DNA of 64,000 bases from an uncultured Candidatus Bathyarchaeia archaeon (GTDB lineage Archaea > Thermoproteota > Bathyarchaeia > 40CM-2-53-6), in contig CAZRDM010000005.1 in NCBI GenBank assembly GCA_964598845.1, positions 32,765 to 96,764 on the forward strand, written 5' to 3'. Below, piece after piece: positions 26,347 to 51,087 of the stretch (within the stretch, counting starts at the first letter, position 1; each line of letters begins with the position of its first letter). The position numbers and the translations under genes are program-made. Under the pieces are notes generated by a model, which saw nothing but the letters and a program-made list of their open reading frames with translations, ran no database searches and was not told the origin of the DNA.

Positions 26347-26985
26347 TTAATGCCGAGAGTCTGGCTTCGCACCTCTCGAGGTCACGTTTGGCTTCAAGTT
26401 CGAGTTGAATCCGATCAGGACTGTACCCCTGTCGGGATCGCTCGTCTCCCATCCAGCTCTTCTCTTGATGTAGAGATCAGTGGTGAGCGAAACGCTAGCC
26501 GACACTACGTCGCAGATTCCCTGAATCGTTTCGATCTCAGGAAAGCTTTGAGGTCCAATTACGAATCTAACCGGTTTTCCCCTAGTGGCTTCCAGTCTGT
26601 TTCTGAATAGAACGAAATCCTTGCCTAGAAAGATCACATTGGGATCGGCTCGAAATCTGGTGACTTCGCCTTCCTCCCAAACCTCTCGGCCAATCACATC
26701 CTTCTCAGCTGTAAGAAGCAAGATCGGCATGGAAGGATGACGCAGACTAGATGAATGGTTGATGCAAACGACAGATTGACGCCCCAAGACGACCTTCACA
26801 CCCTCGTTTACAATATCAAGACCTGGAAGACCGAAACCTCCACTTGCCTTCTCCTCCATTTGGAGGATCGCAGTTCTCTCAGACGCATCCACCGGCCATA
26901 CATCTACGACACCTGGAACTAAACGAAGTTTCGAAACGACTGCGTCAAGGAAACTGAAGCCCGCGGTCCTCTTAGAAGGGTTCAC
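26347..26985 (-). CDS. hypothetical protein
   Basis: 212 aa ORF convergent with the MttB gene; no confident family assignment. Confidence 0.4.
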   Translation of the reverse strand: MNPSKRTAGFSFLDAVVSKLRLVPGVVDVWPVDASERTAILQMEEKASGGFGLPGLDIVNEGVKVVLGRQSVVCINHSSSLRHPSMPILLLTAEKDVIGREVWEEGEVTRFRADPNVIFLGKDFVLFRNRLEATRGKPVRFVIGPQSFPEIETIQGICDVVSASVSLTTDLYIKRRAGWETSDPDRGTVLIGFNSNLKPNVTSRGAKPDSRH

Positions 26986-27748: not shown

Positions 27749-27973
27749 GTAACTGCGTTTTCAGGCCATTATCGTTAATAGTGTTCAGCCTATTACTACC
27801 ATTACCACTACTTACTATTGCCCAGTTGCCTAGTCGGCTCTTCTACGGCTACCTTTTCTACTCTCAACATCATCATTTTGAAGAAGAACCGTTGAATGAA
27901 TGCACCAAGCGTCAGTCGTGTGCAATGCTTGCGAAGGCAGGTTCTCGATCTCGGCGTGACAAGTAGAGCCTCG

Positions 27974-28915
27974 ATGAGCGAGATGATCAGGATAGCCTCT
28001 GAAGCTAGGCGGGGCAATGTCTATGGAATCTGGATAGGCGAAGACATAGCCTTCAGTCGTGATGTCTTCGTGCAGGCCAGCGTGCTAATGAGAAACGCGC
28101 CCAATAGGAATGTCGGGATAGCGGTAACTAGCCCCGCCGTTCATAATATCACAACAATCGCCAGAGCGGCCGCATCTCTGAGACAGATTGATCGCGGCTG
28201 GTTCAGGTTAAGTCTGGGAGTGGGAGGGCTGCAAGACCTAGCGAGGCTTAGAGTGACCGTTGCTAAATCCGTCGCCATGATGAAGCAGGCTATGGACGCG
28301 CTTCGGAAGATTTGGGCCGGCGGAACTGTGACCGTCCAAGGTGAAACTTTTGAGCTCAGACGATTCCAAGCGAGGTACCGATCTGGCCTTGAGATTCCAA
28401 TATATCTCGGAGTCCGCGGCCCGAAGCTGCTTAGGCTCGCGGGACGAACCGCGGATGGAATAATCCTAAGCGGTCCCTTGCCGTACTTGCAGCAGGCGAT
28501 CGATCTGATTCGAGCAGAGGCCACTTCACGAGACTCACGAGCCCGATTCAGAATCGTTGTATGGTTGCCAACATTGGTTGTCAAAGCCAAGAAAGACAGG
28601 GACCTTGCAAGAAGTGTGGCAGCCACTGTGATTGCCGACACCCCGCCCAATGTGCTTGAGATGGCTAGAATCCCAGAAGATGACGTTGGCAGTTTACGAA
28701 GAACTGCGCACCAGCAAGGCTACACCGAGGCTTCAAAGTATGTCACTGATGAACTGCTGGAAAGTTTCACATTGGCGGGCGACACGGCACATATCTGTGA
28801 AGCTTTTCTGTCGTTAGGGAGGCTTGGTGCCGACGAGGTCATATTTGGGCCACCCTATGGGCGGGATCGACTTCATTCAATTCGCGAGGTAATCAGAGCA
28901 TGGGCGCGACTCTGA
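27974..28915 (+). CDS. LLM-class F420-dependent oxidoreductase family protein
   Basis: Luciferase-like monooxygenase fold motifs (GIWIGED..., GVGG). The internal ATG start is preferred over the ORF-track start at 27896. Confidence 0.75.
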   Translation: MSEMIRIASEARRGNVYGIWIGEDIAFSRDVFVQASVLMRNAPNRNVGIAVTSPAVHNITTIARAAASLRQIDRGWFRLSLGVGGLQDLARLRVTVAKSVAMMKQAMDALRKIWAGGTVTVQGETFELRRFQARYRSGLEIPIYLGVRGPKLLRLAGRTADGIILSGPLPYLQQAIDLIRAEATSRDSRARFRIVVWLPTLVVKAKKDRDLARSVAATVIADTPPNVLEMARIPEDDVGSLRRTAHQQGYTEASKYVTDELLESFTLAGDTAHICEAFLSLGRLGADEVIFGPPYGRDRLHSIREVIRAWARL

Positions 28916-29835
28916 AGTTCGGACTGGGCGTCAATGCAAACGAAGCGCTCCAGGGCATAGTGAAGAAAAGCATAGCCGCCGAGGCTGTCGGTTTAGACTA
29001 CATCTGGGTGGCCGATTCACCAGTCCAGCTCTATGCACCTGTCATCGCATCTGAGGTTGCATCAGCCACGCATAGAATTCGCATAGGCCTTGGCTTGATG
29101 AGTGTTCTACTACACGCTCCCCGCCAAGTTGCTGGCGCGATCACTACTCTCTTCGAAGCTTACGGGGATCGGTTCGATATCTGCATTGGGATGGGAGACC
29201 GACGACAACTTGAGCGCGTTGGCGTTAAGGGGGTGAATACCGAAAAGCTACCCCTCAATGTACTGGAAGCGAGAGACAAGATAGTTTCCCATCTACAACA
29301 GGCGAGGATCAGGACCAAGATCTGGCTCGGAGCTCAAGCACCGAAAATGCTCAGGATAGCGAGAGGCTTCGATGGAGTGCTGCTGAACTACTCGAATCCT
29401 GAAATGATAGCTTGGGCCATTACTGAAGCGGGGCTAGGCCGCAAATCAAAGACGCCGCAGGTGAAGATCGGAACATACTCCCCTTCCTATGTTTACATGA
29501 AGCCCGAATCACGCATGCTTGAACGAGTGAAAGTCTCATCTGCGGTCGTTGCGCTCGGCGCGTCAAGCAAATTGCTAAGACGATTGGGGCTCTGGGGGAG
29601 GCTCCGCAGAGCTAAGAGGAGAGCGGAGACAGCCGCGACGATGGAAAGCATTCTTCCAGAAGTGCCCGACGAGGTCGTAGAATACTTCTCGGTAACGATG
29701 AAAGCAGCGGATCTTCCATCATACTTGGCTACGTTGAAGAACCTTGGAGTGGGTCATATTGTGTTCGCTTACCCCCAGAACTATTCCCTCAAAACAGTGA
29801 GAGAGTTAGGGAAGGCTCTGCAATTCGCCTCATAG
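28900..29835 (+). CDS. LLM-class F420-dependent oxidoreductase family protein
   Basis: N-terminal KFGLGV...YIWVADSP, LLM family. It overlaps the preceding LLM gene by 16 nt. Confidence 0.75.
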   Translation: MGATLKFGLGVNANEALQGIVKKSIAAEAVGLDYIWVADSPVQLYAPVIASEVASATHRIRIGLGLMSVLLHAPRQVAGAITTLFEAYGDRFDICIGMGDRRQLERVGVKGVNTEKLPLNVLEARDKIVSHLQQARIRTKIWLGAQAPKMLRIARGFDGVLLNYSNPEMIAWAITEAGLGRKSKTPQVKIGTYSPSYVYMKPESRMLERVKVSSAVVALGASSKLLRRLGLWGRLRRAKRRAETAATMESILPEVPDEVVEYFSVTMKAADLPSYLATLKNLGVGHIVFAYPQNYSLKTVRELGKALQFAS

Positions 29836-29850: not shown

Positions 29851-30468
29851 TTGAGGGGAGCTCTTATTCTCGCTGGCGGGAGGAGCACACGATTTGGCCG
29901 AAACAAAGCGCTCGCGAAACTCGCCGGGAGACCACTCATTCTTCACGTCCTCGATAGAGTCATGAGCGTGGCAGATGAGGTCTTGGTAGCGATTGGGAGA
30001 GAGAATCAGACCTCTTTTTTTACCAAACTTGTTCCGAGGTCCGTACCAGTTCTCAAGGACAGGATGCGTGAGAAGAGCCCCTTGGTGGGAATAGTCACAG
30101 GGTTCCAAGCCATGAAGTCCCAGTACTCACTGGTCCTATCGTGCGACACGCCTTTCGCGAAAGAAAGCGTTCTCGAATCTCTTTTCGAAAGAGCGGCTGA
30201 ATCAGACGCGGCGATTCCGCGGTGGCCGAATGGTGACCTGGAGCCACTGCAATCGGTTTACAGAGTTCGAGGCGCTCTCCGAGCTGCAAGGCTCGCGTTA
30301 AGTCAACATGGCTTTCGAAATGTGGATATGATAAAGAGGCTCGACAAAGTCGTCTTCGTGCCCGTTCAAGAGATCGAGCAACTCGACAGCGCTCTGTTGA
30401 CATTCTTTAACGTGAATACCCCACGCGATCTACGGCGCGCCGAAGTGATTTACCCTTTCGATCGATAG
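29851..30468 (+). CDS. mobA: molybdenum cofactor guanylyltransferase
   Basis: N-terminal LILAGGRSTRFG motif, about 200 aa, TTG start. Confidence 0.7.
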   Translation: MRGALILAGGRSTRFGRNKALAKLAGRPLILHVLDRVMSVADEVLVAIGRENQTSFFTKLVPRSVPVLKDRMREKSPLVGIVTGFQAMKSQYSLVLSCDTPFAKESVLESLFERAAESDAAIPRWPNGDLEPLQSVYRVRGALRAARLALSQHGFRNVDMIKRLDKVVFVPVQEIEQLDSALLTFFNVNTPRDLRRAEVIYPFDR

Positions 30469-30471: not shown

Positions 30472-32235
30472 TTAGCTCCTGGTCGCTTTCTTGACGTATT
30501 GTGAAATCATCTGTTGGATGACCCTTGGATTCAAACGACCCACAGGGCTCTCCGTCTCAAGAAGCCGCCTAGGGATCCTTTCCTTGGTTAGGTCAAAGTC
30601 CTCTCTGATCTTGAAGTCGTAGAGATTTCGGGAAATCTTCCTTCCAAGCCTCATCAGCCTCCCCACGGTGATGTCTATTCCAACAGCTGCTAATGCTCTA
30701 ACAATGAGTTCCTTCACGTAGACGCTCCGTGTGAAGTAGCATGCGATGAGTGAATGGAGGACGTTCAGCCAATCCTCCTCTTCAATGAGGAAGTCAACGA
30801 TCTGTTCCGGGGTTACTCTCTTCGTCATCCCCGTTTGGTCTATGCTGTACCCTGCGTTACTGAGATGGGAGTGTCTAGCGCCTACCAGTGTTCCGACCAA
30901 GAACCCGTAGCCAGTGAAGTACCCTGCCGGGCTATTCTTTCCAAGTGTGATAGCGAATTCTTCTCCACCATATGCTTCGGCAGCAGCAGCAACCCCTCGC
31001 GCGAGTGTTGCATAGAAGTGGTTCTTGGAATCGGCGATGCTTACGATCATGTCCATGTAAGTTTCAAAATCCCCCCACCCAGGACGGAGCCCCATCGTTT
31101 CATCCGTAGTGATGAATCCCTTTTCGTAGGCTTCAGTCGCCCAGGCCAAGACCGCTCCTGTCATGATGGCATCCAAGCCTAAGTGTTCGCACAATGAAAT
31201 CAGCTGTAAAACTCCCTTCGGATCGCTCACAGCCAGATTCGTCCCAAGTGCGAAAATTGGCTCGTAATTGTATGGTACAAGTTCCATTCCCTTGGATTGC
31301 TCCTCCGTTCCTTGCGGGTCACGTTCGCATTCGGAGGTTATCTTGAGGGTGGCCAAGTGTACACAGGTTACCGGGCATCCTAAACAGGAAATCTTTCGCT
31401 CAAGAAACTCCTGAGCGAACCGTTCCCCCGAGATACTATCAGCGTTCTCGTAGACAGTCTCCGAGAAGTTTCTTGATGGTAGCGCCCTCAACTCGTTCAG
31501 TTCGAGAACATTTGCTGCTGTCCCAAATTCTTGATACTTCTTCATGAAGTCCGTTTTGACGACTCGTTCGTAGATCTCGTTATACACCTGTCTGAAGCTC
31601 TTGGAGTTGACAATTTGTATATCGCCTTTGCCGGAAACGCGGACAGCCTTCAGTTTCTTGCTGCCCATCACTGCGCCTAATCCGAGCCGACCAAAGTGGT
31701 GATAACGGTCGGCTATTGCTCCGCTGTAGTGAACAAGATTCTCGCCTGCACGGCCAATGCTCATCACACTGTGCACGCCTCCGTTCGATGGCTTGATTAA
31801 TCTCTCAACTTGGAGCGGTGATAGCCCCCATAGTGGAGAAGCATCTTCGATGCACGCTTTCCCGTTCTCGATACTGAGCCTAACAGGCTCGTCTGAAGCT
31901 CCCTTGATCACAATAGCTCCGTAACCAGCGAAGCGCAGGGCTGTGGAGAAGCGGCCCCCGGCATGCGACTCGCCCAGGTTGCCTGTCAACGGCGATTTGA
32001 AGACGGCCACAGTCTTCGCCATACTCGGGAAGATTCCGACTAGAGGACCTGTCGTGAAAATAATGGGAGCCTCTGGGGATAATGCGCTGATCCGCGGCTG
32101 GCACTCTTCCAGAAGTAGCTTCGACGCTACCCCTGTGCCTCCCAAGTACTTCGCGAAGAGTTCAGATCGTTTTGTCGCCCTAGCTGTTCTCTCGGTCAGG
32201 TCGACGTAAAGAACTCGTTCGAGGCGCGTGCTCAT
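30472..32235 (-). CDS. aldehyde:ferredoxin oxidoreductase family protein (second copy)
   Basis: 587 aa with AOR N- and C-domains (YLGGTGVASKLLLEE). Confidence 0.9.
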   Translation of the reverse strand: MSTRLERVLYVDLTERTARATKRSELFAKYLGGTGVASKLLLEECQPRISALSPEAPIIFTTGPLVGIFPSMAKTVAVFKSPLTGNLGESHAGGRFSTALRFAGYGAIVIKGASDEPVRLSIENGKACIEDASPLWGLSPLQVERLIKPSNGGVHSVMSIGRAGENLVHYSGAIADRYHHFGRLGLGAVMGSKKLKAVRVSGKGDIQIVNSKSFRQVYNEIYERVVKTDFMKKYQEFGTAANVLELNELRALPSRNFSETVYENADSISGERFAQEFLERKISCLGCPVTCVHLATLKITSECERDPQGTEEQSKGMELVPYNYEPIFALGTNLAVSDPKGVLQLISLCEHLGLDAIMTGAVLAWATEAYEKGFITTDETMGLRPGWGDFETYMDMIVSIADSKNHFYATLARGVAAAAEAYGGEEFAITLGKNSPAGYFTGYGFLVGTLVGARHSHLSNAGYSIDQTGMTKRVTPEQIVDFLIEEEDWLNVLHSLIACYFTRSVYVKELIVRALAAVGIDITVGRLMRLGRKISRNLYDFKIREDFDLTKERIPRRLLETESPVGRLNPRVIQQMISQYVKKATRS

Positions 32236-32257
32236 AGTCTGATCATTTACAGGAACC

Positions 32258-33232
32258 TTACGTGGTCGCCAGTCCCATTGTCTGTTTCAGAAGCTGCCCA
32301 TCAACCTTCCCGGAAGTGTGAGTGACTCCTGTCTTCACATTATTGACAGCAAACATCGCAGGTGCGAAAATGTTAGGGTCAATCTTGTAGAAGTCAAACT
32401 CAGCAGCTTTGAATATCTCATAGAAAGGCTTCCCGTAGTCTTTGGATGTTGATGAAGGAGCCTTATGGACGAGTTCTTTCAGCTTCTCGTCATCCTCGAA
32501 GTCAACTGAGTAGAATGTGACACCGCCATAGGCTATTGCATCATTTGTTCGACCCATAGCCTTGGCCGACTTGGGATGAATCGGAGCTATGGGAGCGTAT
32601 CCACACCCATAGAGAATTCTCCTTGGATCGAAGCCAATCTCAGTAAGCCTATGGATTCCGGTCTCAACAATTCTTCCGGAGATCTGAACGGATCCCGCCA
32701 TTGAAGTCGTGGGCGCTACTAGAACGTGGAGATTCGCTAAAGGGATTTCGCATTCTTTCGCAATATATTCGAGGGCTTCCTTCGTTGGGTACTTGTCAGC
32801 CTCGAGCACAATTACGGCTTTATCCGATTTGTCTTTGTACTCGATCTTCTGGTAGAGTTCTTTTGGTTTGAGAGCGAGGGCGCGAGCTGGGCCGGATCCC
32901 ATAGCGAAGTAGTCGGAGGTCTTTATCTGCCAACCGGCGAACTGTGCTCCCAGAGTCGCGATGGCCGGAAAGTCTGTCTCAACGTGCACGCTTGGCAGTA
33001 CGATGCCGTCGTAGCTCATGTGTGTAATGGAGGCCTTGCCTAAGTCACCCAAGCAGGCCTCCGTCATGAACTTGCCTGCCGAGAAGCCTCCTCGGACCTT
33101 AATGCCTAGGTCGATTATGGTGGCTCCTGTTTCATGTCTCTCTGTGAGTATGCCGAGTTCCTCTGCGTGTTGGATGCCCCATTCCACTAGCTTCGCAGTT
33201 CTCTCGTTGACGCTTACGGGCATCTCCGTCAT
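32258..33232 (-). CDS. mch: methenyl-H4MPT cyclohydrolase
   Basis: Near-colinear match to Mch (TDFPAIATLGAQFAGW, GSGPARALALKP, LVAPTTSMAGSVQISGR, KAMGRTNDA, GKPFYEIFK). The start ATG at 33230-33232 overlaps the fwdC stop (ATGA). Confidence 0.9.
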   Translation of the reverse strand: MTEMPVSVNERTAKLVEWGIQHAEELGILTERHETGATIIDLGIKVRGGFSAGKFMTEACLGDLGKASITHMSYDGIVLPSVHVETDFPAIATLGAQFAGWQIKTSDYFAMGSGPARALALKPKELYQKIEYKDKSDKAVIVLEADKYPTKEALEYIAKECEIPLANLHVLVAPTTSMAGSVQISGRIVETGIHRLTEIGFDPRRILYGCGYAPIAPIHPKSAKAMGRTNDAIAYGGVTFYSVDFEDDEKLKELVHKAPSSTSKDYGKPFYEIFKAAEFDFYKIDPNIFAPAMFAVNNVKTGVTHTSGKVDGQLLKQTMGLATT

Positions 33233-34059
33233 GCCTCCAAATATTTCTCGTACCACTTCAAATGGGGGTTGTTCTTGAGGCTGACCGACAATCTGCCTTT
33301 GCCTTCCTCATTCATGTCTCCCGAGAAAGCATAGAAAGGTCCTGGGACTTTCTCTTCGCCCACCTTGACCTTGTCTTGGATCTGTTCAAAGGAAAAGCTC
33401 GGTAGAATCGACGGGAGTTGGCCGCCTATAATGACCTTGCCGCCCTTCATCTGTGCTCCGGCTCGCCCGTCACAGTTGCCTCCGACGAAGATCGTTCCGT
33501 CGGCCATGTGAATGCCGGGGAAGATTCCAGCGCTACCCTTGATCCTGATCGTTCCATTTGCCATCCAGCATCCCACCTCGTGGCCCGCATTGCCGTGGAT
33601 GATTATCGAGCCGTTCTTCATTCCGAGAGTAGTTCCTCGGTACCCAGCTCCGATGTAGTCGGCGGCGTTGCCTTTGACCTCGATCTGTCCTCCTCTCATT
33701 TTTGTGCCAAGCCAAGAGCCTGCGTTTCCAGAGGCCAAGATTGATCCACCCGACATCTCCTCGCCTAGATACATACCAGCGTTACCATCTACGATCAAAG
33801 ATCCGCCAGACATCTTGTACCCCACCTTCCGGATCTTTGCGGCATCACCAACAATTCTAATGGAAGTCTCATCAGGGCCTTCACCCTTTTTCTCAGCGAC
33901 CTGGAAAATGTCGGCAAGCTCGATCCGCCTGTTTCCTTCCCACGCCTTGGTCGTCTCGATCTGTCTCATCGATTTCTCAGTGAATTTTGTGGGTGAAATT
34001 TCTCGGCAGTCAACAGGGAGCTGGAGGCTTCTTCTGATCGCGAGCACGATCTCTCTCAA
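33229..34059 (-). CDS. fwdC: formylmethanofuran dehydrogenase subunit C
   Basis: Repeated GxxGxxxG beta-helix units (GNAGMYLG, GNAGSWLG, GNAADYIG, GNAGHEVG) as in FwdC/GltB C-terminal domain. Confidence 0.85.
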   Translation of the reverse strand: MREIVLAIRRSLQLPVDCREISPTKFTEKSMRQIETTKAWEGNRRIELADIFQVAEKKGEGPDETSIRIVGDAAKIRKVGYKMSGGSLIVDGNAGMYLGEEMSGGSILASGNAGSWLGTKMRGGQIEVKGNAADYIGAGYRGTTLGMKNGSIIIHGNAGHEVGCWMANGTIRIKGSAGIFPGIHMADGTIFVGGNCDGRAGAQMKGGKVIIGGQLPSILPSFSFEQIQDKVKVGEEKVPGPFYAFSGDMNEEGKGRLSVSLKNNPHLKWYEKYLEA

Positions 34060-34062
34060 CGG

Positions 34063-35760
34063 CTAAACCTCTGCTTTGACGGTGATTCTGCTCGGGTTTG
34101 CCAGCTCGTTATCATCCATTGCGTAGTTGTCCATTTGAACTGTGTAGTAGTCGTCGAAGGTCTTCCTCATCTCGGACTCCACATCTTTCATGAGGCTCTC
34201 AGAAACCTTGCTGTCAACCCAGTAGGTGCGTCCGAGCGGTGCTTCAACTATCTCCCCATTCTTGACTACTATTCTTCCATCCTTGATGGTGAAGGCGGCT
34301 CTCTTCAGGGCCTTCCTGACAAGTCGATAGTCCTTTGAAGGGTCGATCTTTGTCGGGTCTAGGTTGTAGATTGAGACATCAGCATCTGCGCCGATTCCGA
34401 GATGTCCCTTCTGGCGTAGCCCCAAGGCCTTGGCGGTCCCAGCGCGCGTGATTATGACGATCTCGGGGAACGAGTACTCTCTATCTATTCCCGGCAGGTC
34501 GAGCTTCTTCTGCGCTGTCTTGTTGATCCTCCCAACGGACTTCTCTCTTGCTTTCTTGCTCATCAGCCAAGCGATGATTTTTGGATACTTCGTGAACGTG
34601 CCACCATTCGGATGGTCGGTAGTCAGATAGACGCGCCAAGGGTCTTTAACGAGAAGGGCGAGTTCGAGGCCGATGCCCCACTGGATCGCGTTCACGTAAT
34701 TGTTTCGTCTGTACTTGTATGGGACGACGCCCGCTCCCGTCTCGACCTCGACATCGAAGTTCATCCACTTGTTCCCTGAGAGTTGATAGAGCATATATTG
34801 GAAGCCCCCATCAGCTGTCATCGTCGTCGTGTCCATGAATACAACTTGACCCAAGTCGACTGTGACATGGTCGTGCTTGTTCACGTAATCTCCTATCTCA
34901 GGCGCTCCGGAGCCGATATTATGCCATGCCGACCCGCTCCGGCCAGTGAACTGGACATGGGTTATGTGGATTATGGGCTTGTTGTCGTGGGCGAGGTCTC
35001 TGACTGAGTCCATCGTCGCGATGGTTGTCTCGTAGTTTCCAATCTTGGCGAGGTCATTGGTATGTACATGGATTGTGTGCGGGAGTTTCAGGAGCTGATT
35101 GACTTTGCAGATTCCTCGAACGATCTCCTTGGGTGTGATATCGAAGTTCGGGACATGGTCCTTGAGGCCGGTGATGTATCTTCCCCACCTCCAGGCCTCG
35201 ACGCCCCCGGGGTTGACTACCTTTATGGCATATCCCTTGGTTGCCCTAAGCATCCATGACACGTAGGCCGCGCATTCTTCTACACGGCCCTGTGCGAGAT
35301 ATTCCAGCGTTCGCCAATCATTACCGAAGAGTGGGAAACAACCCTTATCCACTATTGGAGTGTCGTCGAGTTCCTCGTGAGTATGCCTTGTCTTCATGAG
35401 AGGTGTGGCTGGCTCGAAGACGGTTGTGTAACCCATTCTTGCATATCGATAACCCGTTGTGAACGTTGAGGGAATCGACTTCCCAGTTCCAGCGCGAGTC
35501 AGCGATGTACGCGTCTCTACATCTTTCTCATGGTCTTCAGGCCTCAGTATCCTACCGGCGTTTACCTTTGACCCTGCTATGTGGGAATGAATATCGACCC
35601 CGCCCGGCATCACCATCATGCCAGAGGCATCGATCACCGTCGCGCTCGCGCCAACGTTCTTCACAATCTTGCCATCTTTGATGTAGATGTCGAGTTTTTC
35701 GCCTTCGATCCCGTTAAGCGGGTCGAAGACGATCCCATTCCTTATGGCCAGTTCACTCAA
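34063..35760 (-). CDS. fwdA: formylmethanofuran dehydrogenase subunit A (amidohydrolase)
   Basis: 565 aa; N-terminal IRNGxVFDPLNGIEGEKxDIxIKDGKI...GGVDIHSH matches FwdA. Confidence 0.9.
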   Translation of the reverse strand: MSELAIRNGIVFDPLNGIEGEKLDIYIKDGKIVKNVGASATVIDASGMMVMPGGVDIHSHIAGSKVNAGRILRPEDHEKDVETRTSLTRAGTGKSIPSTFTTGYRYARMGYTTVFEPATPLMKTRHTHEELDDTPIVDKGCFPLFGNDWRTLEYLAQGRVEECAAYVSWMLRATKGYAIKVVNPGGVEAWRWGRYITGLKDHVPNFDITPKEIVRGICKVNQLLKLPHTIHVHTNDLAKIGNYETTIATMDSVRDLAHDNKPIIHITHVQFTGRSGSAWHNIGSGAPEIGDYVNKHDHVTVDLGQVVFMDTTTMTADGGFQYMLYQLSGNKWMNFDVEVETGAGVVPYKYRRNNYVNAIQWGIGLELALLVKDPWRVYLTTDHPNGGTFTKYPKIIAWLMSKKAREKSVGRINKTAQKKLDLPGIDREYSFPEIVIITRAGTAKALGLRQKGHLGIGADADVSIYNLDPTKIDPSKDYRLVRKALKRAAFTIKDGRIVVKNGEIVEAPLGRTYWVDSKVSESLMKDVESEMRKTFDDYYTVQMDNYAMDDNELANPSRITVKAEV

Positions 35761-37072
35761 GTGTTTGACCTCCCTTCAGCTTCTTCACTTCTCTAAGGAT
35801 ATCGCGAAGGATCTCGACATCGGGTCTTATTCCGGGGGGTGGAGGAACAACAGGTTTCGTCTTTAATGCGACCCCATCCATGCGATATATCGAGCCGCCA
35901 GTTTCGATTCCGACGATTGCTGAGGGAAAGACTACTTCCGATATGAGTCCGGTCGCGGACGGGCGTGGGTCGATTGTGACGATTGGGATCTGCGCCAAAC
36001 GTCTCGTCGCCTCGACGGGAAAGTTGGAAACCGGGTCCGAGGCTACGACGAGAGCGGCGTCAGAATCGCCTCTTGAGAGTATGTCGATTACAGTAGTGTC
36101 GCCGGGGTTGTAGCGTGGGTAGCCTTGGCTCAGATCAACTGCGTAGGGGAATCCTGTCACCCAAGCTGTGACCTGGTTCGCTCCAGCGACATTGTACCAG
36201 CCTCGCATTGGCATTATGAGGAACTTCGTCCGCGCATTGAGATCGCGGACAAGGGAGAGAGCGACGTCGATGTTTCTATGTTTCCCGCTCGTCATGGTGA
36301 GGCCTACGCCGAAGAAGAGGATGCCGAACTCGCAGCTTACCATGAGGTCGGCTATTTCTTCTATTTTGTCGGCAGGTACGCCAGCGATCACATCCTGCTC
36401 CAGTTCGTCTCCTCGAACAGCCATCCTGAAGGCGCATAGGAGGTCGTAATCGCCGTTTGGCGTGATCTGCAGAAAGTGGTCCGCTAGCTTCGCCGTATCG
36501 GTCTTCCGTACGTCCACAACAACGATTTTCCTATCTTTTCTTCCACCGCGGAATCGACCCTTGCGAATTGCCAGACGCTGCATGTGATGGGGATGGGAGT
36601 GGATCGGGTTTGATCCCCAGTAGACTATCAGGTCCGCACGTTGCCTGACTTCCCCGAAGGTGCAGCTCACTTCACCTATGTCGTGCACGCCCAGAAGTGT
36701 TGGACCGTGACATACGGTGGTTGTGTTGTCTATGACTCCGCCGACCCATTCCGTCAGCTCGATGCCGACTTTGGTTGCTTCGCAGCTGGTTGAACTCCAA
36801 CCATACAAGATAGGGTATTTGGCGTTGGCTAGTATCTCTGCAGCTCTAGATACCGCCTGTTGATAGCTCGCTTCGTGAAGTTCTCCATTCTTCTTCATGA
36901 GCGGGGTTAGATGGCGGTCGCGATTGTACTCCATCAATTTCGCTAGCGAGATGGCGCATCCTGAGCGGGAACTCTGGACCTTTCCATTCTCAACAGTGAC
37001 TTGGAGGTCGTCGCATGTGGCCCCGCAGAATGTGCAGATCACGTTCGGTATGACTTCTTTCGTCATTCTCAT
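35753..37072 (-). CDS. fwdB: formylmethanofuran dehydrogenase subunit B (molybdopterin oxidoreductase)
   Basis: 439 aa; N-terminal Cys cluster (CTFCGATCDD) and molybdopterin-oxidoreductase architecture. It overlaps fwdA and fwdD. Confidence 0.85.
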   Translation of the reverse strand: MRMTKEVIPNVICTFCGATCDDLQVTVENGKVQSSRSGCAISLAKLMEYNRDRHLTPLMKKNGELHEASYQQAVSRAAEILANAKYPILYGWSSTSCEATKVGIELTEWVGGVIDNTTTVCHGPTLLGVHDIGEVSCTFGEVRQRADLIVYWGSNPIHSHPHHMQRLAIRKGRFRGGRKDRKIVVVDVRKTDTAKLADHFLQITPNGDYDLLCAFRMAVRGDELEQDVIAGVPADKIEEIADLMVSCEFGILFFGVGLTMTSGKHRNIDVALSLVRDLNARTKFLIMPMRGWYNVAGANQVTAWVTGFPYAVDLSQGYPRYNPGDTTVIDILSRGDSDAALVVASDPVSNFPVEATRRLAQIPIVTIDPRPSATGLISEVVFPSAIVGIETGGSIYRMDGVALKTKPVVPPPPGIRPDVEILRDILREVKKLKGGQTLE

Positions 37073-37467
37073 GTCCTCCGGGTCATCTCTGCGACTAGAT
37101 GTGGCAAGTCTAGGACTTCTTCGTTAGGGGCGGGTGTCACTTCTGCCTCAACCCCTTTGAAAGTTGGCATACCGGTTCCCTGCGTTTCCGAGGAAAGCAC
37201 CATATTGGCCCATGGTCCGTAGGGGATGAATGCAACGCCCCTATGCGGCGCCTGCGATGACGCGACAGCTCTCACAACTACACTTCCAGTACTCGTAGAG
37301 ACCTTGATTTTCTGGTCTGGAGAGATGCCTAATGACTTCATGTCGTCAGGATCAAGTTCGCAGATGGCAACGCTTCGAGCGTACTTGTCTGAGAGTTTTC
37401 CTGAGACCTTGGCTCTGGCTTGACTGAGACTTCGTCCCGATAAAAGGGTCACCCTCAAGCTTAACAT
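37069..37467 (-). CDS. fwdD: formylmethanofuran dehydrogenase subunit D (molybdopterin dinucleotide-binding domain)
   Basis: 132 aa; the FwdD-like sequence VTLLSGRSLSQA...IDPDDMKxLGI; first gene of the fwdDBAC-mch operon. Confidence 0.8.
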   Translation of the reverse strand: MLSLRVTLLSGRSLSQARAKVSGKLSDKYARSVAICELDPDDMKSLGISPDQKIKVSTSTGSVVVRAVASSQAPHRGVAFIPYGPWANMVLSSETQGTGMPTFKGVEAEVTPAPNEEVLDLPHLVAEMTRRT

Positions 37468-37680
37468 GCAGATTCAACCTAAGTGAGGTCACACAACGTA
37501 CACATAATGTTGTGGTGTCAATTTCACTCACTGTAATCGCATCAGGGAGAGTCGTTCGGAACGTCGCCCAATCGAAATCGTAGAACGATATTTGTTGCCC
37601 TCGTATCTGTCCTAGCAGCTCTCCACATCGTTCTCTCAATTCCGCTCGGCCCTGTCGGGTTTAGACGTTTCAGCATAGTC

Positions 37681-38280
37681 ATGGAGCCGCTTGAGGGAAT
37701 CATTGGAGGACCACTATACGGTTCGGTCGCCGCCATCATTGGATGGATTGGAGGAAGATTCATGCGCCCAGAAACCTTCTACATCGAGAACTTCTTCGGG
37801 TTAGCAGAGGCGATAGGAGCGCTTGGGGCTGGTCTTCTTATCAGGAAACGTTGGTGGGCTGTATCGATCCTCTATGGTGTCCTTCTAGTCGCATTTCTAG
37901 TTCATCCTTTCGCGAGGGCAGTTCCGCTCTGGACTCTCTGGGACACGTATCTTGGATTCGCCGCAATATTTCCTGCCGCAATTGCTGTTAAGAAAATGGA
38001 CATAAAGAATCTGGATTCAAAAGTTTTACTAGCCGTGGTGGCTCTCGTCACCTTCGTAGCCGTTGAGCTGGACGCGATGGCGAGGATCTTCATGCTGGCC
38101 GATCTGGGGCTTTATGAGACGTATGGAATTCCTTTGGATGCTTGGTCCACGATATTCATCGCAGGCGCCTTTCAAACCCCGGTCGAGAGCGTCTACAGCG
38201 TAGCAATAGCCTCAATGGTGGGAGTGCCGGTCCTAATCGCTCTTAGGGTCGCAAGGATCTTGGATTGGCCGCTCTCCTAG
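37681..38280 (+). CDS. polytopic membrane protein, paralog family member 2
   Basis: 199 aa; a paralog of the 27020 ORF; divergently transcribed from fwdD. Confidence 0.55.
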   Translation: MEPLEGIIGGPLYGSVAAIIGWIGGRFMRPETFYIENFFGLAEAIGALGAGLLIRKRWWAVSILYGVLLVAFLVHPFARAVPLWTLWDTYLGFAAIFPAAIAVKKMDIKNLDSKVLLAVVALVTFVAVELDAMARIFMLADLGLYETYGIPLDAWSTIFIAGAFQTPVESVYSVAIASMVGVPVLIALRVARILDWPLS

Positions 38281-38301
38281 CGAGAGATGGAGCCTTAGAT
38301 T

Positions 38302-39147
38302 CTAAGCCTCCCCGGGTCTTCTAGGTTTCTCTATCAATCTTTGCTTCGAGAGTATTGTGCCGTCGTCGTGGTGAGGCATCCTGACGACTCGGTCTTCCGC
38401 CTTATCCATCTCTCTAGCTTCGTCTGCTAGTCTAGATGCTTCTCTCATCATTTCATGGGCTGCTGCAACAAGCTGCGTGTAGCGTTCCCATTCCTTCACA
38501 ACGAAGCATCCTTCAACGGTGAGGTCGGCAACTCTCTTGGCGATCTCGTGGGCGGCCATGGCTTTGGTTTTCGCGTATGGGTTGTTTAGGGCCGAATATG
38601 CAACCGCTTTCTCCTTGTCGATCACAATTTTCGGTAGAGTCAGCGCCTCACCTTTCGCGATCGTTTGAACGAGCTTGTCGATCTCCTGCCAGAGGAGATT
38701 GAACACTCCGGTGACAGTGAGGACTTTCATAAGATCTGTGTTGAAGAGAGCCATCTCGGCTGGGTCCAAGAATTCCCTTCTCGCGCCAATCATCGCGTCA
38801 GCCTCGACGATCATATATCCCGCCCCTAGCTTCTCGATATCTTGAACCGCCTTCTTAGCAGGGCCGTCGGAGACAACAACAGTCGGAATCTTCCCACCCG
38901 TCAAAATCTCACGCAACTTGGTCGGACCTGGAAGTCCAGCGTTCGGGCTTGTGACGACGGCAAGGTGAGGTTTGAACTCAAGCAATTTCTGAGCGACTTC
39001 CGTGGCCTGCTCGACTCCCATCTTCGCACCGCTCCCGACGACTCGCACGTCTATGTCCTTCCGATCCGCGCGCTCGTCCAAGAGGAATTCAAGGAGAGGA
39101 GCCGCGCCGATGTTCCCTAATTTGCCAAAACCTACCTTCACAACCAA
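38302..39147 (-). CDS. mtd: F420-dependent methylene-H4MPT dehydrogenase
   Basis: A near-colinear match to Mtd over the full length (MVVKxG..KxGNIG, LLDERADR, IDVRVVGSGAKM, MIGARREFLDP, NPYAKxKAMAAxEIAxxVAD, VASAHEM). TTG start. Confidence 0.9.
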   Translation of the reverse strand: MVVKVGFGKLGNIGAAPLLEFLLDERADRKDIDVRVVGSGAKMGVEQATEVAQKLLEFKPHLAVVTSPNAGLPGPTKLREILTGGKIPTVVVSDGPAKKAVQDIEKLGAGYMIVEADAMIGARREFLDPAEMALFNTDLMKVLTVTGVFNLLWQEIDKLVQTIAKGEALTLPKIVIDKEKAVAYSALNNPYAKTKAMAAHEIAKRVADLTVEGCFVVKEWERYTQLVAAAHEMMREASRLADEAREMDKAEDRVVRMPHHDDGTILSKQRLIEKPRRPGEA

Positions 39148-39299
39148 AGTACTTTCACCGCTTCCACCTACGCTCTTGACTTGGCGTATAACGCTTGCCG
39201 CGATATGATACTTACAATATGTACGAAGATTTTCGAATTAGATTCGATTTACGAAATCATCTTAAGCAGACCATTCCGCATTGGCGCGGAGACAGAGCA
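39148..39299. promoter_or_regulatory. AT-rich divergent intergenic region between mtd (-) and ftr (+), a candidate bidirectional promoter
   Basis: A short AT-rich spacer (gatacttacaatatgtacg..., atttacgaaat) lies between two divergently oriented C1-pathway genes. Confidence 0.3.
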
Positions 39300-40199
39300 T
39301 TGTCCAGTGGAGTTGAAATCGAGGACACATTCGCTGAAGCCTTTCCAATGGTCGCCGCGAGGATTTTGATAACGGCCGATAACGAGAAATGGGCGTTGAC
39401 CGCGGCTAGGACTGCCACGGGATTCGCATCATCGATTATTATGTCGCCAGCCGAAGCTGGGGTTGAAGGATCTATCGTTCCTCCAGAGAAGACGCCCGAT
39501 GGAAGACCGGGTGTGCACCTACAGATATACCACAGGACTCGTACCGAGCTCAAACGGCAGATGATTGCTAGGATGGGGCAGTGCATACTGACCTGCCCTA
39601 CCACCGCAGCCTTCGACGCAATGCCAGATGCGAAACGCCGCTTGAGAGTCGGATGGGCTATCCGGATGTTCGGCGACGGCTACGAAAAGAGAGACAACCT
39701 CAACGGAAGGAGGATTTGGCGTATCCCAGTTATGGAAGGCGAATTCGTAACGGAGAGTCGGTTCGGTGTTCGCAGATGTGTGGCCGGCGGGAACTTCATC
39801 ATAATGGCCGATAACCAGAAAACGGGTTTGCAGGCGGCTGAGAATGCTGTACAAGCCATGAACAAGGTCGAAGGTGTTGTACTCACCTTTCCGGGGGGCA
39901 TATGTAGATCGGGCTCCAAAGTGGGGTCGATGAAATACAAGCTCCCGGCAACCACGAATCACCTCTTCTGCCCCAAGCTTCGAGAAACAGCAGCTGGATC
40001 CCTCGTTCCCGAAGGGGTGGGAAGCGTCTATGAACTCGTCTTCAATGGACTCAATTTCGACACTGTCAAGCGAGGAACGGCCGAGGGGATACGCGCCGCG
40101 GTAGCCGTACCAGGTGTTAAGAAGATCACTGCCGTAAACTTCGGAGGAAAGCTCGGACCATATCAGATTAAGCTCAAAGAGGCATTAACAACAGCATAG
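39195..40199 (+). CDS. ftr: formylmethanofuran:H4MPT N-formyltransferase
   Basis: Near-colinear match to Ftr (GVEIEDTFAEAF, TATGF, PDGRPGV, GQCxLTxPT, FDAMP, FGDGY, GRRIWRIPVMEGEF, AGGNF, GLQAAExAV, NFGGKLG). The true start is probably internal (TTG near 39300) rather than the ORF-track TTG at 39195. Confidence 0.9.
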   Translation: MPRYDTYNMYEDFRIRFDLRNHLKQTIPHWRGDRALSSGVEIEDTFAEAFPMVAARILITADNEKWALTAARTATGFASSIIMSPAEAGVEGSIVPPEKTPDGRPGVHLQIYHRTRTELKRQMIARMGQCILTCPTTAAFDAMPDAKRRLRVGWAIRMFGDGYEKRDNLNGRRIWRIPVMEGEFVTESRFGVRRCVAGGNFIIMADNQKTGLQAAENAVQAMNKVEGVVLTFPGGICRSGSKVGSMKYKLPATTNHLFCPKLRETAAGSLVPEGVGSVYELVFNGLNFDTVKRGTAEGIRAAVAVPGVKKITAVNFGGKLGPYQIKLKEALTTA

Positions 40200-41264
40200 A
40201 TCTTTATCCATGAACAGTTTCAAGAAGTCATACCCACGCGCCTGAGGCGACCCGACAAGGATTCGTTGATATTTCAGACGTCCTGATCGGTCCAAGACAT
40301 CCTCGAGTTTTCCTCTGATTACCAACCATTCTCCGCTCTCAGCGATATCCGCGTAGAGTCCCTCGAAGCTGACCACCTTGTGGACCTTGTTGAACTTGCC
40401 CGAGCCTTGAAGCTGAACACAGTCCACGAGATAAATCGACGGAAGGAAATATGAATCCGTAGTATCGACAACCTTGGCTCTTGCTTCAACAATCCCATGG
40501 GACTTGTAGACTTCATCACCGTAGCGCTCGCTAACTTCCTCCTCGGTCTTCGTCGGATGTATCGAGAAGATTGTGTTCTTGAAGACTCCCTTGTTCCACT
40601 TCCTTGAATAGAGCATTCTAGCCTCGTTCAAAGTCAAGGGATGAACCGTGGACATCTCTCTGCACCATCTCGAGAGTCTCGTACCCTGAAGCTTCTGGAC
40701 TGCGCCCCTTGCGTACAGTCGGAGCAATGCCTCCTTGATCTTCCGGCTCTCATCACGGCCATACACAACCAAGTCTATGTCACTAAAGCTCACGTTGTGG
40801 ACATCTAGCAAGATTGATCCTGTGATTCCAAGACTATCCAGAGAAATTCCGCTATCATCACAAAGGAGGGAAGCCAGTTCAACAGCCTTCTTTTCAAGAT
40901 TGTCCAAATCATCGGTCCTGAAGAGGTCCTTCAAGCGTTCGTCTGGTCGATAGTGTTTCGCGATTCTTTCCAGCGGAACCGCGAAGAAGGTCATGCGAAG
41001 CGGTTCAGATCGAAAGAGGTACTCGGGGTATCGTCCACGCAGGAACTCTATCTGCTTCATCACATTTGACGCTGAGTAATACCTGACTAACCTTCTGTAC
41101 CTCCTCCTGCCCTTCCCCCATTTTCCGCGGTGGCTCGGCACGTACTTCGGGAAAGCGAAAACTCGGTCGTTGGGGTGAACGTTGCCTATGACAGCGAAGA
41201 ATAGGCCGTCGATAGTTTCAATGTAGTCGCGGTCTCTAAAACCTCTACTCACTCTTTCCAACAA
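40185..41264 (-). CDS. nucleotidyltransferase-fold protein of unknown function (paralog A)
   Basis: 359 aa. A Pol-beta-type NTase motif G-x-x-GS...SDIDLVVYG sits at about residues 135-170, behind a roughly 130-aa N-terminal domain. It is a tandem paralog of the next gene, with similar motif order. Confidence 0.6.
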   Translation of the reverse strand: MLERVSRGFRDRDYIETIDGLFFAVIGNVHPNDRVFAFPKYVPSHRGKWGKGRRRYRRLVRYYSASNVMKQIEFLRGRYPEYLFRSEPLRMTFFAVPLERIAKHYRPDERLKDLFRTDDLDNLEKKAVELASLLCDDSGISLDSLGITGSILLDVHNVSFSDIDLVVYGRDESRKIKEALLRLYARGAVQKLQGTRLSRWCREMSTVHPLTLNEARMLYSRKWNKGVFKNTIFSIHPTKTEEEVSERYGDEVYKSHGIVEARAKVVDTTDSYFLPSIYLVDCVQLQGSGKFNKVHKVVSFEGLYADIAESGEWLVIRGKLEDVLDRSGRLKYQRILVGSPQARGYDFLKLFMDKDLCCC

Positions 41265-42276
41265 CCGTTAGGAAGTCACGTGGATCCTCGCCGATTACCA
41301 ACCTATGCGTTTCACCGCGCTTTTCAACAACCTTCTCCAAAGTCCCCTTCGCAAGAATACGCTCTCCAATGAGTGCCTGCTCGCAAAATCTGCCCCTAAA
41401 GGAAACTATCTGAGAGGGAGGCTTAATCGCTGCGCCTCCAGTTAACTCAACGTGTAAGATCTGATAAGTAGAGGGAGTGAAGATTGACTCGGAGTCATCC
41501 ACGATCGTCGCGCTCAGGGTGGCCATGCCAATGGGATAGTACTTCCTATCACCATATTCCTCATGCAGTTCGTCCCATTCCTTGACGCAACGTATGAAGT
41601 ACTGCGTACCCCTGAAGGTTCCTTGCAGAACCTTCGACTGCTCATGTCTGACGAACGTCTCGAATGATATTGCAGACGCTAGACTCCTCTGCTTGTACAG
41701 TTTGCGCAGATCGCTCGCACCGCACGGACTAAACCCTTCTGAACGGGTTTCGAGAAGCGACTTCAGTCTTGCATGAGTCTGGCGAGAGGCCTCGGTGCCA
41801 TAAAGGACCAAGTCTATGTCGGATTCCGCAGCGTGGAGGCCGACGAGGATCGAGCCCGAGACCCCAATTTTGGAGGAGGAGATTCCAGTTTGATTCGTCA
41901 GAGTTTCCACCATACCGATGGCGAGTCGCTCCTGCGGATCAAGGTCAGCTTTCTGCCTGAGCTCTGCGTATCTCTCTGTTGGGATGCAGTGCGACTTGAC
42001 ATTATCCAGAGGAACGGCCTGCACTTCCCTATTGAACACAGGGCACCTGTAGAGGTAGTGTGGCCATCTCCTCGCAAGGAGATAGGCACGTGCATCGAGG
42101 TCGTAGACCTTTCGATACTTGATTCCGTTTCTTTGCCTAGTTCCGCGTCCGTCGGGAAGGTATCTGAGATATGCTATGACTCGATCGGGAGGATGAAGAA
42201 ATCCCTTTACATCAAAGATCAGTCCCTCGACGGTTTCGATGAAGTCTCCTTCCCGAGCTTTGACTTTCCAAGTCAT
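41245..42276 (-). CDS. nucleotidyltransferase-fold protein of unknown function (paralog B)
   Basis: 343 aa with the GVSGSILVGLHAAESDIDLVLYG NTase motif; N- and C-regions align with paralog A (FIETVEGLIFDV vs YIETIDGLFFAV). Confidence 0.6.
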   Translation of the reverse strand: MTWKVKAREGDFIETVEGLIFDVKGFLHPPDRVIAYLRYLPDGRGTRQRNGIKYRKVYDLDARAYLLARRWPHYLYRCPVFNREVQAVPLDNVKSHCIPTERYAELRQKADLDPQERLAIGMVETLTNQTGISSSKIGVSGSILVGLHAAESDIDLVLYGTEASRQTHARLKSLLETRSEGFSPCGASDLRKLYKQRSLASAISFETFVRHEQSKVLQGTFRGTQYFIRCVKEWDELHEEYGDRKYYPIGMATLSATIVDDSESIFTPSTYQILHVELTGGAAIKPPSQIVSFRGRFCEQALIGERILAKGTLEKVVEKRGETHRLVIGEDPRDFLTVVGKSE

Positions 42277-42316: not shown

Positions 42317-43195
42317 CTATCGGCGCGCCTTCGATAAGACGTACTGTGCTATCTGATCGGCAATACTGACCTTCGTGGTGCTCTGAAGTCCTCGCCAGCC
42401 CGGCTGAGAATTGACCTCGTTTACGAGAAGGCCTGCATCACTCTCCATAATGTCCACGCCGGCGATTTCGCAGCCGATCGCGCTTGCCGCATCAAGAGCA
42501 AGCTTCTCTGTTTCTGCAACCAGATCTGCCTTGACAGAGGCTGCGCCTTGGCTCACGTTCGTCTTCCAAGACTCAGCAACCCTGTACATCGCAGCCACAG
42601 CCCTCCCGCCGATGACGAAGATTCTCATGTCCCTTTTCCCATGGGGGACAAATTCCTGAACGTAGATGACGTGCCGATAGAAACGAAGCGTTCTGAAGAC
42701 TCTCTCTGCCACATCGGTATCTGAGATCTTGGCTGCGCCTATTCCTCTTGAACCGAAAATAGGTTTCACGATGGCTTCACCGCCGAAGGCCTTGAAGGCC
42801 TTCAAAGCCTCAGACACGCTCTCGGTGATAACGGTCCTCGGGATTGAGATTCCATTTTCATTCAAGATCGTGAGGGCGTAGTACTTGTCAACAGCTTTCT
42901 CTATGGCGGATGGATGATTGATCACAGGTAGGCCCATCCTCCAGAGCTTGTGCAACATGTCCATTTGAAAGATCACTTCATCCAACGAACCCCGTCCTAT
43001 CGGCCGAACAAGCAAGGCGCCAAGATCCCTGATGAGATCAAGATTCTCGAAGGAGATCTGAGGCTCCATGTTTATTCGCGCTGCGATGTCGGTGAAACTC
43101 AATGCGACGGGGTCTGCCCCGTTTCGACGAAAAGCCTGAAGGAGTCTGGAGGAACACCAAGCATCTTGGTTCCTTGTCAGGAGACCGATCTTCAA
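42317..43195 (-). CDS. RimK-family ATP-grasp ligase (H4MPT:alpha-L-glutamate ligase MptN / F420 alpha-glutamyl ligase CofF-like)
   Basis: 292 aa. The N-terminus (MKIGLLTRNQDAW), ATP-grasp core, and C-terminal VNEVNSQPG are typical of the RimK/LysX family. Confidence 0.75.
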   Translation of the reverse strand: MKIGLLTRNQDAWCSSRLLQAFRRNGADPVALSFTDIAARINMEPQISFENLDLIRDLGALLVRPIGRGSLDEVIFQMDMLHKLWRMGLPVINHPSAIEKAVDKYYALTILNENGISIPRTVITESVSEALKAFKAFGGEAIVKPIFGSRGIGAAKISDTDVAERVFRTLRFYRHVIYVQEFVPHGKRDMRIFVIGGRAVAAMYRVAESWKTNVSQGAASVKADLVAETEKLALDAASAIGCEIAGVDIMESDAGLLVNEVNSQPGWRGLQSTTKVSIADQIAQYVLSKARR

Positions 43196-51082: not shown

Positions 51083-51087
51083 AAAGT

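Follow-up and report, generated by a model that had tools for sequence, protein, structure and literature searches.

A tetrahydromethanopterin C1 pathway and corrinoid methyltransferase genes on one contig of a Bathyarchaeia archaeon

A 64-kb stretch of contig CAZRDM010000005.1 (assembly GCA_964598845.1), hereafter the window, comes from an uncultured Bathyarchaeia archaeon and contains a cluster of genes for tetrahydromethanopterin (H4MPT)-dependent C1 metabolism, together with genes for corrinoid-dependent methyl transfer. The open reading frames (ORFs) of the window were listed and about 60 of them were run against Pfam and NCBIfam profiles, and the reading was extended to ~87 kb of the same contig (the window, ~18 kb upstream, and ~5 kb downstream, the last of which held nothing relevant). 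The window agreed with one ENA contig with 0 mismatches across 2906 nt, and the same sequence was independently assembled from several metagenomes; this contig is found as NODE_13 of ENA ERZ781360 (118.8 kb), as k141_619128 of ERZ27245483 (106 kb), and as a 119.6-kb NCBI record. These genes probably represent the H4MPT methyl branch of the Wood-Ljungdahl pathway in a most likely non-methanogenic archaeon, with methylated amines as a further source of methyl groups, a reading to which a probability of roughly 0.75 is given here.

The H4MPT pathway genes and their distribution

All five steps from CO2 to methyl-H4MPT are encoded in the window, by FwdABCD, Ftr, Mch, Mtd, and Mer (Table 1). An initial annotation, made from the sequence alone, had described a fwdD-fwdB-fwdA-fwdC-mch operon, a divergent mtd/ftr pair, and mer at 19655, all of which were recovered by the profile searches: the cut-offs of TIGR03129, TIGR03121, TIGR03122, and TIGR03120 were far exceeded in the fwd-mch array, and Ftr, Mtd, and Mer likewise scored above the curated cut-offs of TIGR03119, NF002162, and TIGR03555. 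The junctions within the array are tight, with a 4-bp overlap between fwdD and fwdB, an 8-bp overlap between fwdB and fwdA, a 3-bp gap between fwdA and fwdC, and an ATGA overlap between the fwdC stop and the mch start. The genes mtd and ftr are divergent and have a 152-bp upstream region in common. Two starts in the ORF list were too long; the mch start is ATG 33232, as indicated by the Joint Genome Institute (JGI) gene call and by the sequence of the junction, and the ftr start is TTG 39300, according to a 299-aa gene call in independent assemblies.

Table 1. Genes and other features of the window and of the upstream part of the contig. Scores are in bits, with the cut-off of the model after "vs"; L030 and L033 refer to upstream sequence of the same contig; Pyl, pyrrolysine.
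Feature	Position	Strand	Evidence
fwdD, formylmethanofuran dehydrogenase subunit D, first gene of the array	37069-37467	-	PF01568 E 3e-15
fwdB, catalytic molybdo/tungstopterin subunit, Cys type	35753-37072	-	TIGR03129 544 bits vs 328
fwdA, amidohydrolase subunit	34063-35760	-	TIGR03121 807 bits vs 393
fwdC	33229-34059	-	TIGR03122 263 bits vs 131; PF01493 GXGXG
mch, methenyl-H4MPT cyclohydrolase	32258-33232	-	TIGR03120 417 bits vs 229
mtd, F420-dependent methylene-H4MPT dehydrogenase	38302-39147	-	PF01993 385 bits; NF002162 389 bits vs 297
ftr, formylmethanofuran:H4MPT formyltransferase	39300-40199	+	TIGR03119 399 bits vs 293
mer, F420-dependent methylene-H4MPT reductase	19655-20647	+	TIGR03555 409 bits vs 349
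Free-standing MtrH-family protein, putative methyl-corrinoid:H4MPT methyltransferase (methyltransferase 2, MT2)	23936-24835	+	NF002142 "MtrH family" 331 bits vs 287
Non-Pyl MttB-family methyltransferase (methyltransferase 1, MT1, candidate)	24850-26319	+	PF06253 372 bits; 15 bp after mtrH
Second non-Pyl MttB-family methyltransferase	15277-16722	+	PF06253 309 bits; 36% identical to 24850-26319
Corrinoid protein, two more non-Pyl MttB, amino-acid-type permease	L033:124-7169		~10.8-17.8 kb upstream of window position 1
tRNA-Pyl(CUA) (pylT)	L030:187-256, upstream of window		
PylS	L030:574-1407		TIGR02367 (PylS_Cterm) 270 bits vs 178
MtbB, dimethylamine methyltransferase, one in-frame TAG	L030:1607-3112		followed by PYLIS_2-like element, 33.5 bits vs gathering 36
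MobA-like nucleotidyltransferase, candidate maker of guanine dinucleotide pterin cofactor for FwdB	29851-30468	+	PF12804 121 bits
Membrane protein between fwdD and mtd, 199 aa	37681-38280	+	no Pfam/NCBIfam match
Two paralogous predicted nucleotidyltransferases, Pol-beta-type domain and OB fold	40185-41264 and 41245-42276	-	32% mutual identity
RimK/MptN-like ATP-grasp glutamate ligase, candidate for H4MPT tailoring	42317-43195	-	NF040720 MptN 266 bits, below 350; TIGR00768 205 bits vs 143
CofE-like F420-0:gamma-glutamyl ligase family	43296-44135	+	PF01996 81 bits; TIGR01916 60 bits, below cut-off
CitG-like triphosphoribosyl transferase family, candidate for cofactor biosynthesis	44139-45092	-	PF01874 251 bits
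Ornithine cyclodeaminase gene, split by in-frame TAG	20640-21659	+	TAG at 21093-21095, conserved Gln of GxGxQ dinucleotide-binding motif
Divergent AOR-family tungsten oxidoreductase	30472-32235	-	PF02730 and PF01314; 22 bp downstream of mch
gcvPA, gcvPB, glycine dehydrogenase (decarboxylating) subunits	11476-14429	+	PF02347, PF21478
nuoB-C-D-I	55594-58229	-	Pfam matches

As far as sequence tells, the formylmethanofuran dehydrogenase (Fwd) is a genuine redox enzyme. FwdB can be aligned over its whole length with the tungsten enzyme of Methanothermobacter wolfeii (5T5I_B, 471 bits) and, in this alignment, keeps both the N-terminal CxxCxxxC...C motif (CTFCGATC...C) and the catalytic Cys-His (VCHGP). 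Because these [4Fe-4S] cysteines and the catalytic Cys-His are retained, Fwd is predicted to be a true dehydrogenase. A relationship to the non-redox bacterial Fhc enzyme was considered and rejected on the presence of the FwdB N-terminus and catalytic Cys; the truncated non-redox Fhc (6S6Y) gave only 48 bits with FwdB. FwdA scored 699 bits against chains 9SW6_I and 5T5I_A, with conservation of the HSH metal motif of the binuclear site. The tungsten-specific exception models were all below cut-off for the Fwd subunits, and FwdD reached 103 bits with the exception model NF042908, which is below its strain-specific cut-off.

FwdF and FwdG are electron-input subunits found in the M. wolfeii complex and are not universal. 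A motif scan of the 64 kb for CxxCxxCxxxC (two [4Fe-4S] clusters) returned NuoI as the sole ORF, and FwdF and FwdG are therefore absent from the window; a soluble ferredoxin would presumably serve the FwdB cluster directly. Supply of the pterin cofactor may be local, as the MobA-like gene, which adjoins mch in a related genome (L009, see below), and a nearby ThiS/MoaD-like gene are consistent with such a role.

The same core was compared with four diverged Bathyarchaeia loci (L009, L013, L015, and L016), the first of which belongs to the nearest species-representative genome. The ftr/mtd-fwdDBAC-mch core recurs in all four, with Mtd 56-81% identical to that of the window, and no polyferredoxin ORF was detected inside their fwd arrays (one small single-motif ORF lies immediately upstream of mtd in L013). 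Since the core recurs in this form, the absence of F and G and the leading position of subunit D, which had been pointed out as features of the operon in the initial annotation, are correct observations that describe an ordinary, class-typical layout and not an oddity.

The surrounding genes are partly shared as well. Each of the four loci carries a subset of the CitG-like, CofE-like, and MptN-like genes and one or two nucleotidyltransferase/OB-fold (oligonucleotide/oligosaccharide-binding fold) proteins; the synteny of the latter was seen in all four, and the CitG-like gene is kept within the cluster in L009, L013, and L015. The two nucleotidyltransferases have a GS...DxD motif, a weak PF01909 match, and a confident AlphaFold2 (AF2) model (predicted local distance difference test score, pLDDT, 93.5); neither belongs to a Pfam or NCBIfam family, and their PDB matches were at the domain level only, with none close. 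About 2,500 metagenome homologues were found, and in diverged Bathyarchaeia these proteins adjoin ftr and an MptN-like gene. The module reaches ~45092 and takes in probable cofactor-tailoring genes, whose proposed roles are provisional because they derive from family membership below equivalog cut-offs and from neighbourhood.

The membrane protein encoded between fwdD and mtd is different in this respect. In all four loci mtd stands directly before fwdD, without an intervening membrane protein, and the gene is a lineage-specific insertion. It is a paralogue of a second gene at 27020-27748 (minus strand; 31% identity, E 8e-28), which sits beside mtrH-mttB; both proteins are multi-helix and share FLVHPF and C-terminal WPL motifs, and the pair may transport a substrate or cofactor. 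Searching the former against Pfam at E values up to 1 gave nothing meaningful, and its AF2 model, built from an alignment of two sequences, reached a pLDDT of only 42, too poor for use.

The window belongs to a Bathyarchaeia archaeon, judging from homologues and synteny. Among the best 120 Mtd homologues, the named ones were only Bathyarchaeota/Bathyarchaeia and metagenome-assembled genomes (MAGs) labelled "Nitrososphaerales"; in a species-representative collection, Bathyarchaeia MAGs ranked highest by Mtd identity (56-81%), and Methanocella reached 52-53%. The initial annotation had suggested placing the lineage by phylogeny, and a quick neighbour-joining tree with thin methanogen sampling nested the window in the Bathyarchaeia group, with Methanocella outside. 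Synteny is the stronger argument: a 21-gene block is shared with L009 at 56-88% protein identity. At 52.6% GC, the module is in line with the window (51.1%), so that no sign of recent transfer is evident.

Methyl-group entry and pyrrolysine genes

The MtrH-like gene at 23936, already noticed in the initial annotation, passed the general MtrH family model but failed the canonical equivalog TIGR01114 (257 bits vs 271). Its PDB scores were 287 bits with 8Z9U_B, 200 bits with the free-standing MtgA of Desulfitobacterium hafniense, and 187 bits with MtrH of the Mtr complex. Of the conceivable acceptors (H4MPT, CoM, or folate), the context points to H4MPT as the presumable one. In L009, a run of mtrH, mttB, a gene for a 212-aa protein, the membrane protein gene, and mobA directly abuts mch, which supports a functional tie of MtrH to the H4MPT pathway. 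In the window, the corresponding 212-aa protein (26347-26985, minus strand) is conserved, has no detectable family, and, as in L009, is encoded between mttB and the gene for the membrane protein.

The adjacent MttB-family gene is an uninterrupted ORF that scored 423 bits with the Pyl-type model TIGR02369, below the cut-off of 525, and its best PDB match was glycine betaine methyltransferase (278 bits). A second such gene closes a co-directional run of gcvPA, gcvPB, a short-chain dehydrogenase/reductase (SDR) gene, and mttB (11476-16722, plus strand), an arrangement that hints at a betaine/sarcosine-to-glycine degradation unit. In total, the contig encodes a single MtrH and a single corrinoid protein alongside four MttB paralogues and one MtbB, and so brings together MT1, corrinoid protein, and putative MT2 components. 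No corrinoid protein was found in the window. The one upstream (L033:1511-2149) carries the DxHxxG motif as DIHDIG and passed TIGR02370 (240 bits vs 215), and it scored 190-208 bits with MtgC models, below cut-off. The same upstream stretch (L033:124-7169) also holds a Mer-paralogue luciferase-like monooxygenase (LLM) family oxidoreductase, which at 257 bits does not reach the cut-off for Mer. No candidate iron-sulfur ATPase for a reductive activase of the RamA type was present in the window, and none was seen in the flanks read.

Genes for Pyl use lie ~5.4-8.3 kb upstream of window position 1 (L030:187-3112; also L033:10001-12539). They comprise pylT, pylS, and mtbB; the 10 kb to each side of pylS showed no pylBCD. 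PylS is already listed by NCBI annotation in several Bathyarchaeota MAGs. Stop codons of 59 genes in the window were TAG in 24, TGA in 23, and TAA in 12, and TAG also ended 7 of 12 upstream genes (L033), making it the commonest stop overall (31/71). In Pyl-using archaea, UAG is reported to stay under about 6%, Sifarchaeia (21%) being the known exception (PMC9723677). Such TAG-rich stops in an apparently Pyl-decoding archaeon are the most interesting loose end of this locus.

Several individual TAG codons were also inspected. The ornithine cyclodeaminase gene carries its in-frame TAG in five independent assemblies, whereas another assembly (L025) has CAG there and an intact 328-aa gene. Pyl read-through of this codon was rejected on account of the Gln codon at the same position in L025, and the TAG is best described as a population-level nonsense polymorphism, which is possibly leaky if tRNA-Pyl is charged. 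The stop of fwdA is TAG, with fwdC in the same frame one codon on (34060-34065, minus strand), and UAG read-through would fuse FwdA and FwdC; the same in-frame layout occurs at the OppD/OppF and OppA/OppB junctions (4286-4294 and 1482-1502, plus strand). These junctions are probably due to chance.

Other neighbouring genes

The neighbours listed in the initial annotation were largely found again: gcvPA and gcvPB, two AOR genes, and nuoBCDI are present, whereas the several class-III aminotransferase genes and peptide transporters reported there reduce to a single class-III aminotransferase gene (45996-47372) and a single Opp-type peptide ABC operon. The AOR-family gene next to mch is the more divergent of the two (248 bits with 1AOR, compared with 452 bits for the other, 16852-18720); it is not at the matching position in L009, and only this species' version of the cluster has an AOR at this place. 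The glycine cleavage P-protein genes may supply extra methylene units; neither gcvT nor gcvH was detected in the window. NuoD is without CxxC nickel-binding motifs, and a NiFe hydrogenase identity was rejected for this reason; since the nickel ligands are missing, nuoBCDI are assigned to the Nuo/Fpo type and may belong to a complex that re-oxidizes F420H2 or ferredoxin. No membrane subunit genes (A, H, and J-N) are adjacent to nuoBCDI, which are flanked by a helix-turn-helix (HTH) regulator and a SUF operon.

Two tandem luciferase-like F420 oxidoreductase genes paralogous to mer (27896-28915 and 28900-29835, plus strand; 153 and 100 bits, well below the Mer cut-off) travel with the cluster and stand beside the aminotransferase gene in L009, and a further member of this family, truncated to a fragment of 114 aa, is encoded close to the end of the window (61243-61587, minus strand). 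Further along are a free-standing LAGLIDADG-domain protein (47773-48645, plus strand), an Fe/Mn superoxide dismutase (48673-49281, minus strand), and a SUF/NifU/cysteine desulfurase cluster (49382-55347, minus strand); the dismutase and the full SUF/NifU/cysteine desulfurase set thus occur in a presumed anaerobe. An isolated rps12 gene for ribosomal protein S12 is found near the window end (61733-62179, plus strand), and the ORF listed on the opposite strand there (61730-62035) is not a gene.

Interpretation and comparison with known systems

According to the proposed scheme, the MttB-family enzymes and the upstream Pyl-containing MtbB would move methyl groups from quaternary and methylated amines to the corrinoid protein, from which MtrH would hand them to H4MPT. 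The resulting methyl-H4MPT could be oxidized to CO2 via Mer, Mtd, Mch, Ftr, and Fwd, with formation of two F420H2 and reduced ferredoxin, or alternatively be combined with CO to yield acetyl-CoA (methylotrophic acetogenesis). Operated in reverse, the same enzymes would form a CO2-reducing electron sink for the fermentation of peptides and amino acids. The initial annotation had favoured a Wood-Ljungdahl or methyl-oxidation route based on H4MPT, in an archaeon that is either not a methanogen or a methylotroph, and this view is supported by the lineage, by the free-standing MtrH beside MttB, and by the corrinoid and Pyl methyltransferase parts on the contig.

Several points weigh against this scheme. 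The corrinoid protein gene is ~16 kb upstream of the window and ~40 kb from mtrH, so that the two are linked by contig and not by operon. Genes of arginine/ornithine type stand between mer and mtrH, and the co-location of these two may therefore be partly fortuitous. With ~37% identity to characterized enzymes, the MttB paralogues are too distant for substrate assignment, and pairs of MtrH and corrinoid protein have also been suggested to be anabolic (PMC7886697). The direction of flux is not readable from sequence. In addition, the reading covers only ~87 kb, and the carbon monoxide dehydrogenase/acetyl-CoA synthase (CODH/ACS) genes, hdr/mvh, pylBCD, the corrinoid activator, and mcr or acr could lie elsewhere; cdhABCDE were seen neither in the window nor in the flanks that were read.

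The most serious alternative, which we nevertheless regard as unlikely, is that the pathway serves only as a reductive, acetogenic CO2-fixing sink for fermentation and that MtrH and MttB are unrelated to it, acting, for example, in osmolyte turnover or in methyl transfer for anabolism. Bathyarchaeia have classically been proposed to be reductive acetogens (PMC7886697, PMC10667645), an anabolic role of a corrinoid protein and MtrH has been explicitly raised by Loh et al., and in the window mtrH lies ~7 kb from the fwd-mch array, with unrelated genes between mtrH and mer. However, mtrH-mttB directly abuts mch in L009, and five MT1-type genes, a corrinoid protein, and Pyl machinery on one contig would be a heavy investment for anabolism.

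A methanogen, or an alkane or methane oxidizer, with mcr (or acr), mtrA-G, and hdr/mvh elsewhere in the genome is quite improbable. The Fwd, Ftr, Mch, Mtd, and Mer set is the same as that of methanogens, Pyl-dependent MtbB, pylS, and pylT are classical methanogen traits, and a few Bathyarchaeia families do have Mcr/Acr or a full Mtr (PMC8407382, PMC9635834). On the other hand, no Mcr or MtrA-G domains were detected among the ORFs of the window, as the initial annotation had stated, or in the ~23 kb of flanks, and the partner of mtrH is an MttB-family gene and not mtrA-G. Mcr is rare in the class, with 0/57 MAGs in one survey (PMC11264602) and only Family-7.3 in another (PMC8407382), and TAG is the commonest stop here, unlike in Pyl-using methanogens (PMC9723677). 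The proposed non-methanogenic lifestyle thus has three grounds: mcr and mtrA-G are absent locally, MtrH is non-canonical, and Mcr is rare across the class. Genes for peptide and amino-acid catabolism and AORs also abound nearby. Least probable of all is the possibility that the H4MPT enzymes are housekeeping C1 carriers (for biosynthesis, formaldehyde detoxification, or glycine cleavage) and not an energy pathway: folate-less archaea use H4MPT for biosynthetic C1 units and gcvPA/PB are in the window, but biosynthetic C1 supply needs no complete redox-competent Fwd, and the full CO2-to-methyl route is tightly clustered across diverged Bathyarchaeia.

The proposed methyl branch with methylated-amine entry resembles systems already described. 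Within Bathyarchaeia, only a few families have Mcr and the H4MPT Wood-Ljungdahl pathway counts as ancestral, and the H4MPT pathway itself, an isolated mtrH beside a corrinoid protein gene, Fpo-like complexes, and the rarity of Mcr have all been published (PMC8407382, PMC7886697, PMC11264602). Among the closest counterparts is the Bathy-6 lineage "Candidatus (Ca.) Termitimicrobium" (PMC7886697), which likewise has Fwd/Ftr/Mch/Mtd/Mer, an isolated mtrH without mtrA-G, an Fpo/Nuo-like module, a context of peptide and amino-acid fermentation, and no Mcr; however, its mtrH adjoins a corrinoid protein gene, whereas that of the window is flanked by an MttB-family MT1 gene. In "Ca. Hecatella orcuttiae" and JdFR-11, Pyl genes and methylamine methyltransferases are also proposed to feed an oxidative Wood-Ljungdahl pathway (PMC9635834, PMC9723677): a methylamine-fed metabolism of this kind was proposed for Mtr-bearing Hecatellales (PMC9635834), and Bathyarchaeota JdFR-11 was described as having a PylSBCD cluster (PMC9723677). 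The "Ca. Hecatella orcuttiae" lineage relies on a complete canonical Mtr complex; none was seen here, where the free-standing MtrH would provide the link.

The MtgB-MtgC-MtgA glycine betaine methyltransferase system of D. hafniense also combines a non-Pyl MttB-family MT1 (278 bits), a corrinoid protein, and an MtrH-fold MT2 (200 bits to MtgA). It differs in its acceptor, which is tetrahydrofolate there and presumably H4MPT here; moreover, the MtgA and MtgC equivalog cut-offs were not reached, and the genes on this contig are dispersed and do not form one operon. The Bathyarchaeia-specific MtgB O-demethylase of "Ca. Baizosediminiarchaeum ligniniphilus" (PMC10989822) is likewise part of a three-component corrinoid system with proposed methyl delivery to H4MPT and a membrane protein in the cluster, but it has ~300 aa and no homology to known MT1s, whereas the MT1 candidates here are MttB-family proteins of ~480-490 aa. 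As to Fwd, the FwdA, B, C, and D subunits are full-length homologues of those in the M. wolfeii FwdABCDFG complex (5T5I), with metal and cluster ligands kept; the differences are that the window is without the FwdF polyferredoxin and FwdG, and that the gene order here is D-B-A-C followed by mch.

A more far-reaching version of the proposed scheme is advanced only tentatively, namely that the organism is a dedicated, non-methanogenic methylotroph of methylamines and quaternary amines, in which Pyl-containing MtbB and four MttB enzymes would load a single corrinoid protein, MtrH would pass the methyl groups to H4MPT, and a four-subunit Fwd without polyferredoxin would close an oxidative or acetogenic route, with UAG as the commonest stop. 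If true, Pyl decoding and UAG termination would coexist here to a more extreme degree than in any archaeon reported so far.

Each element of the locus has already been reported for the class, so the arrangement is a known one and the current picture is unchanged. The particulars of the window are modest: the mtrH-MttB pairing, many MT1 paralogues on the contig, and the lineage-specific AOR and membrane protein in the cluster. With the H4MPT pathway, its cofactor genes, a full set of corrinoid methyltransferase components, and Pyl genes all located on a single contig, the locus is a compact example and lends itself to biochemical work.

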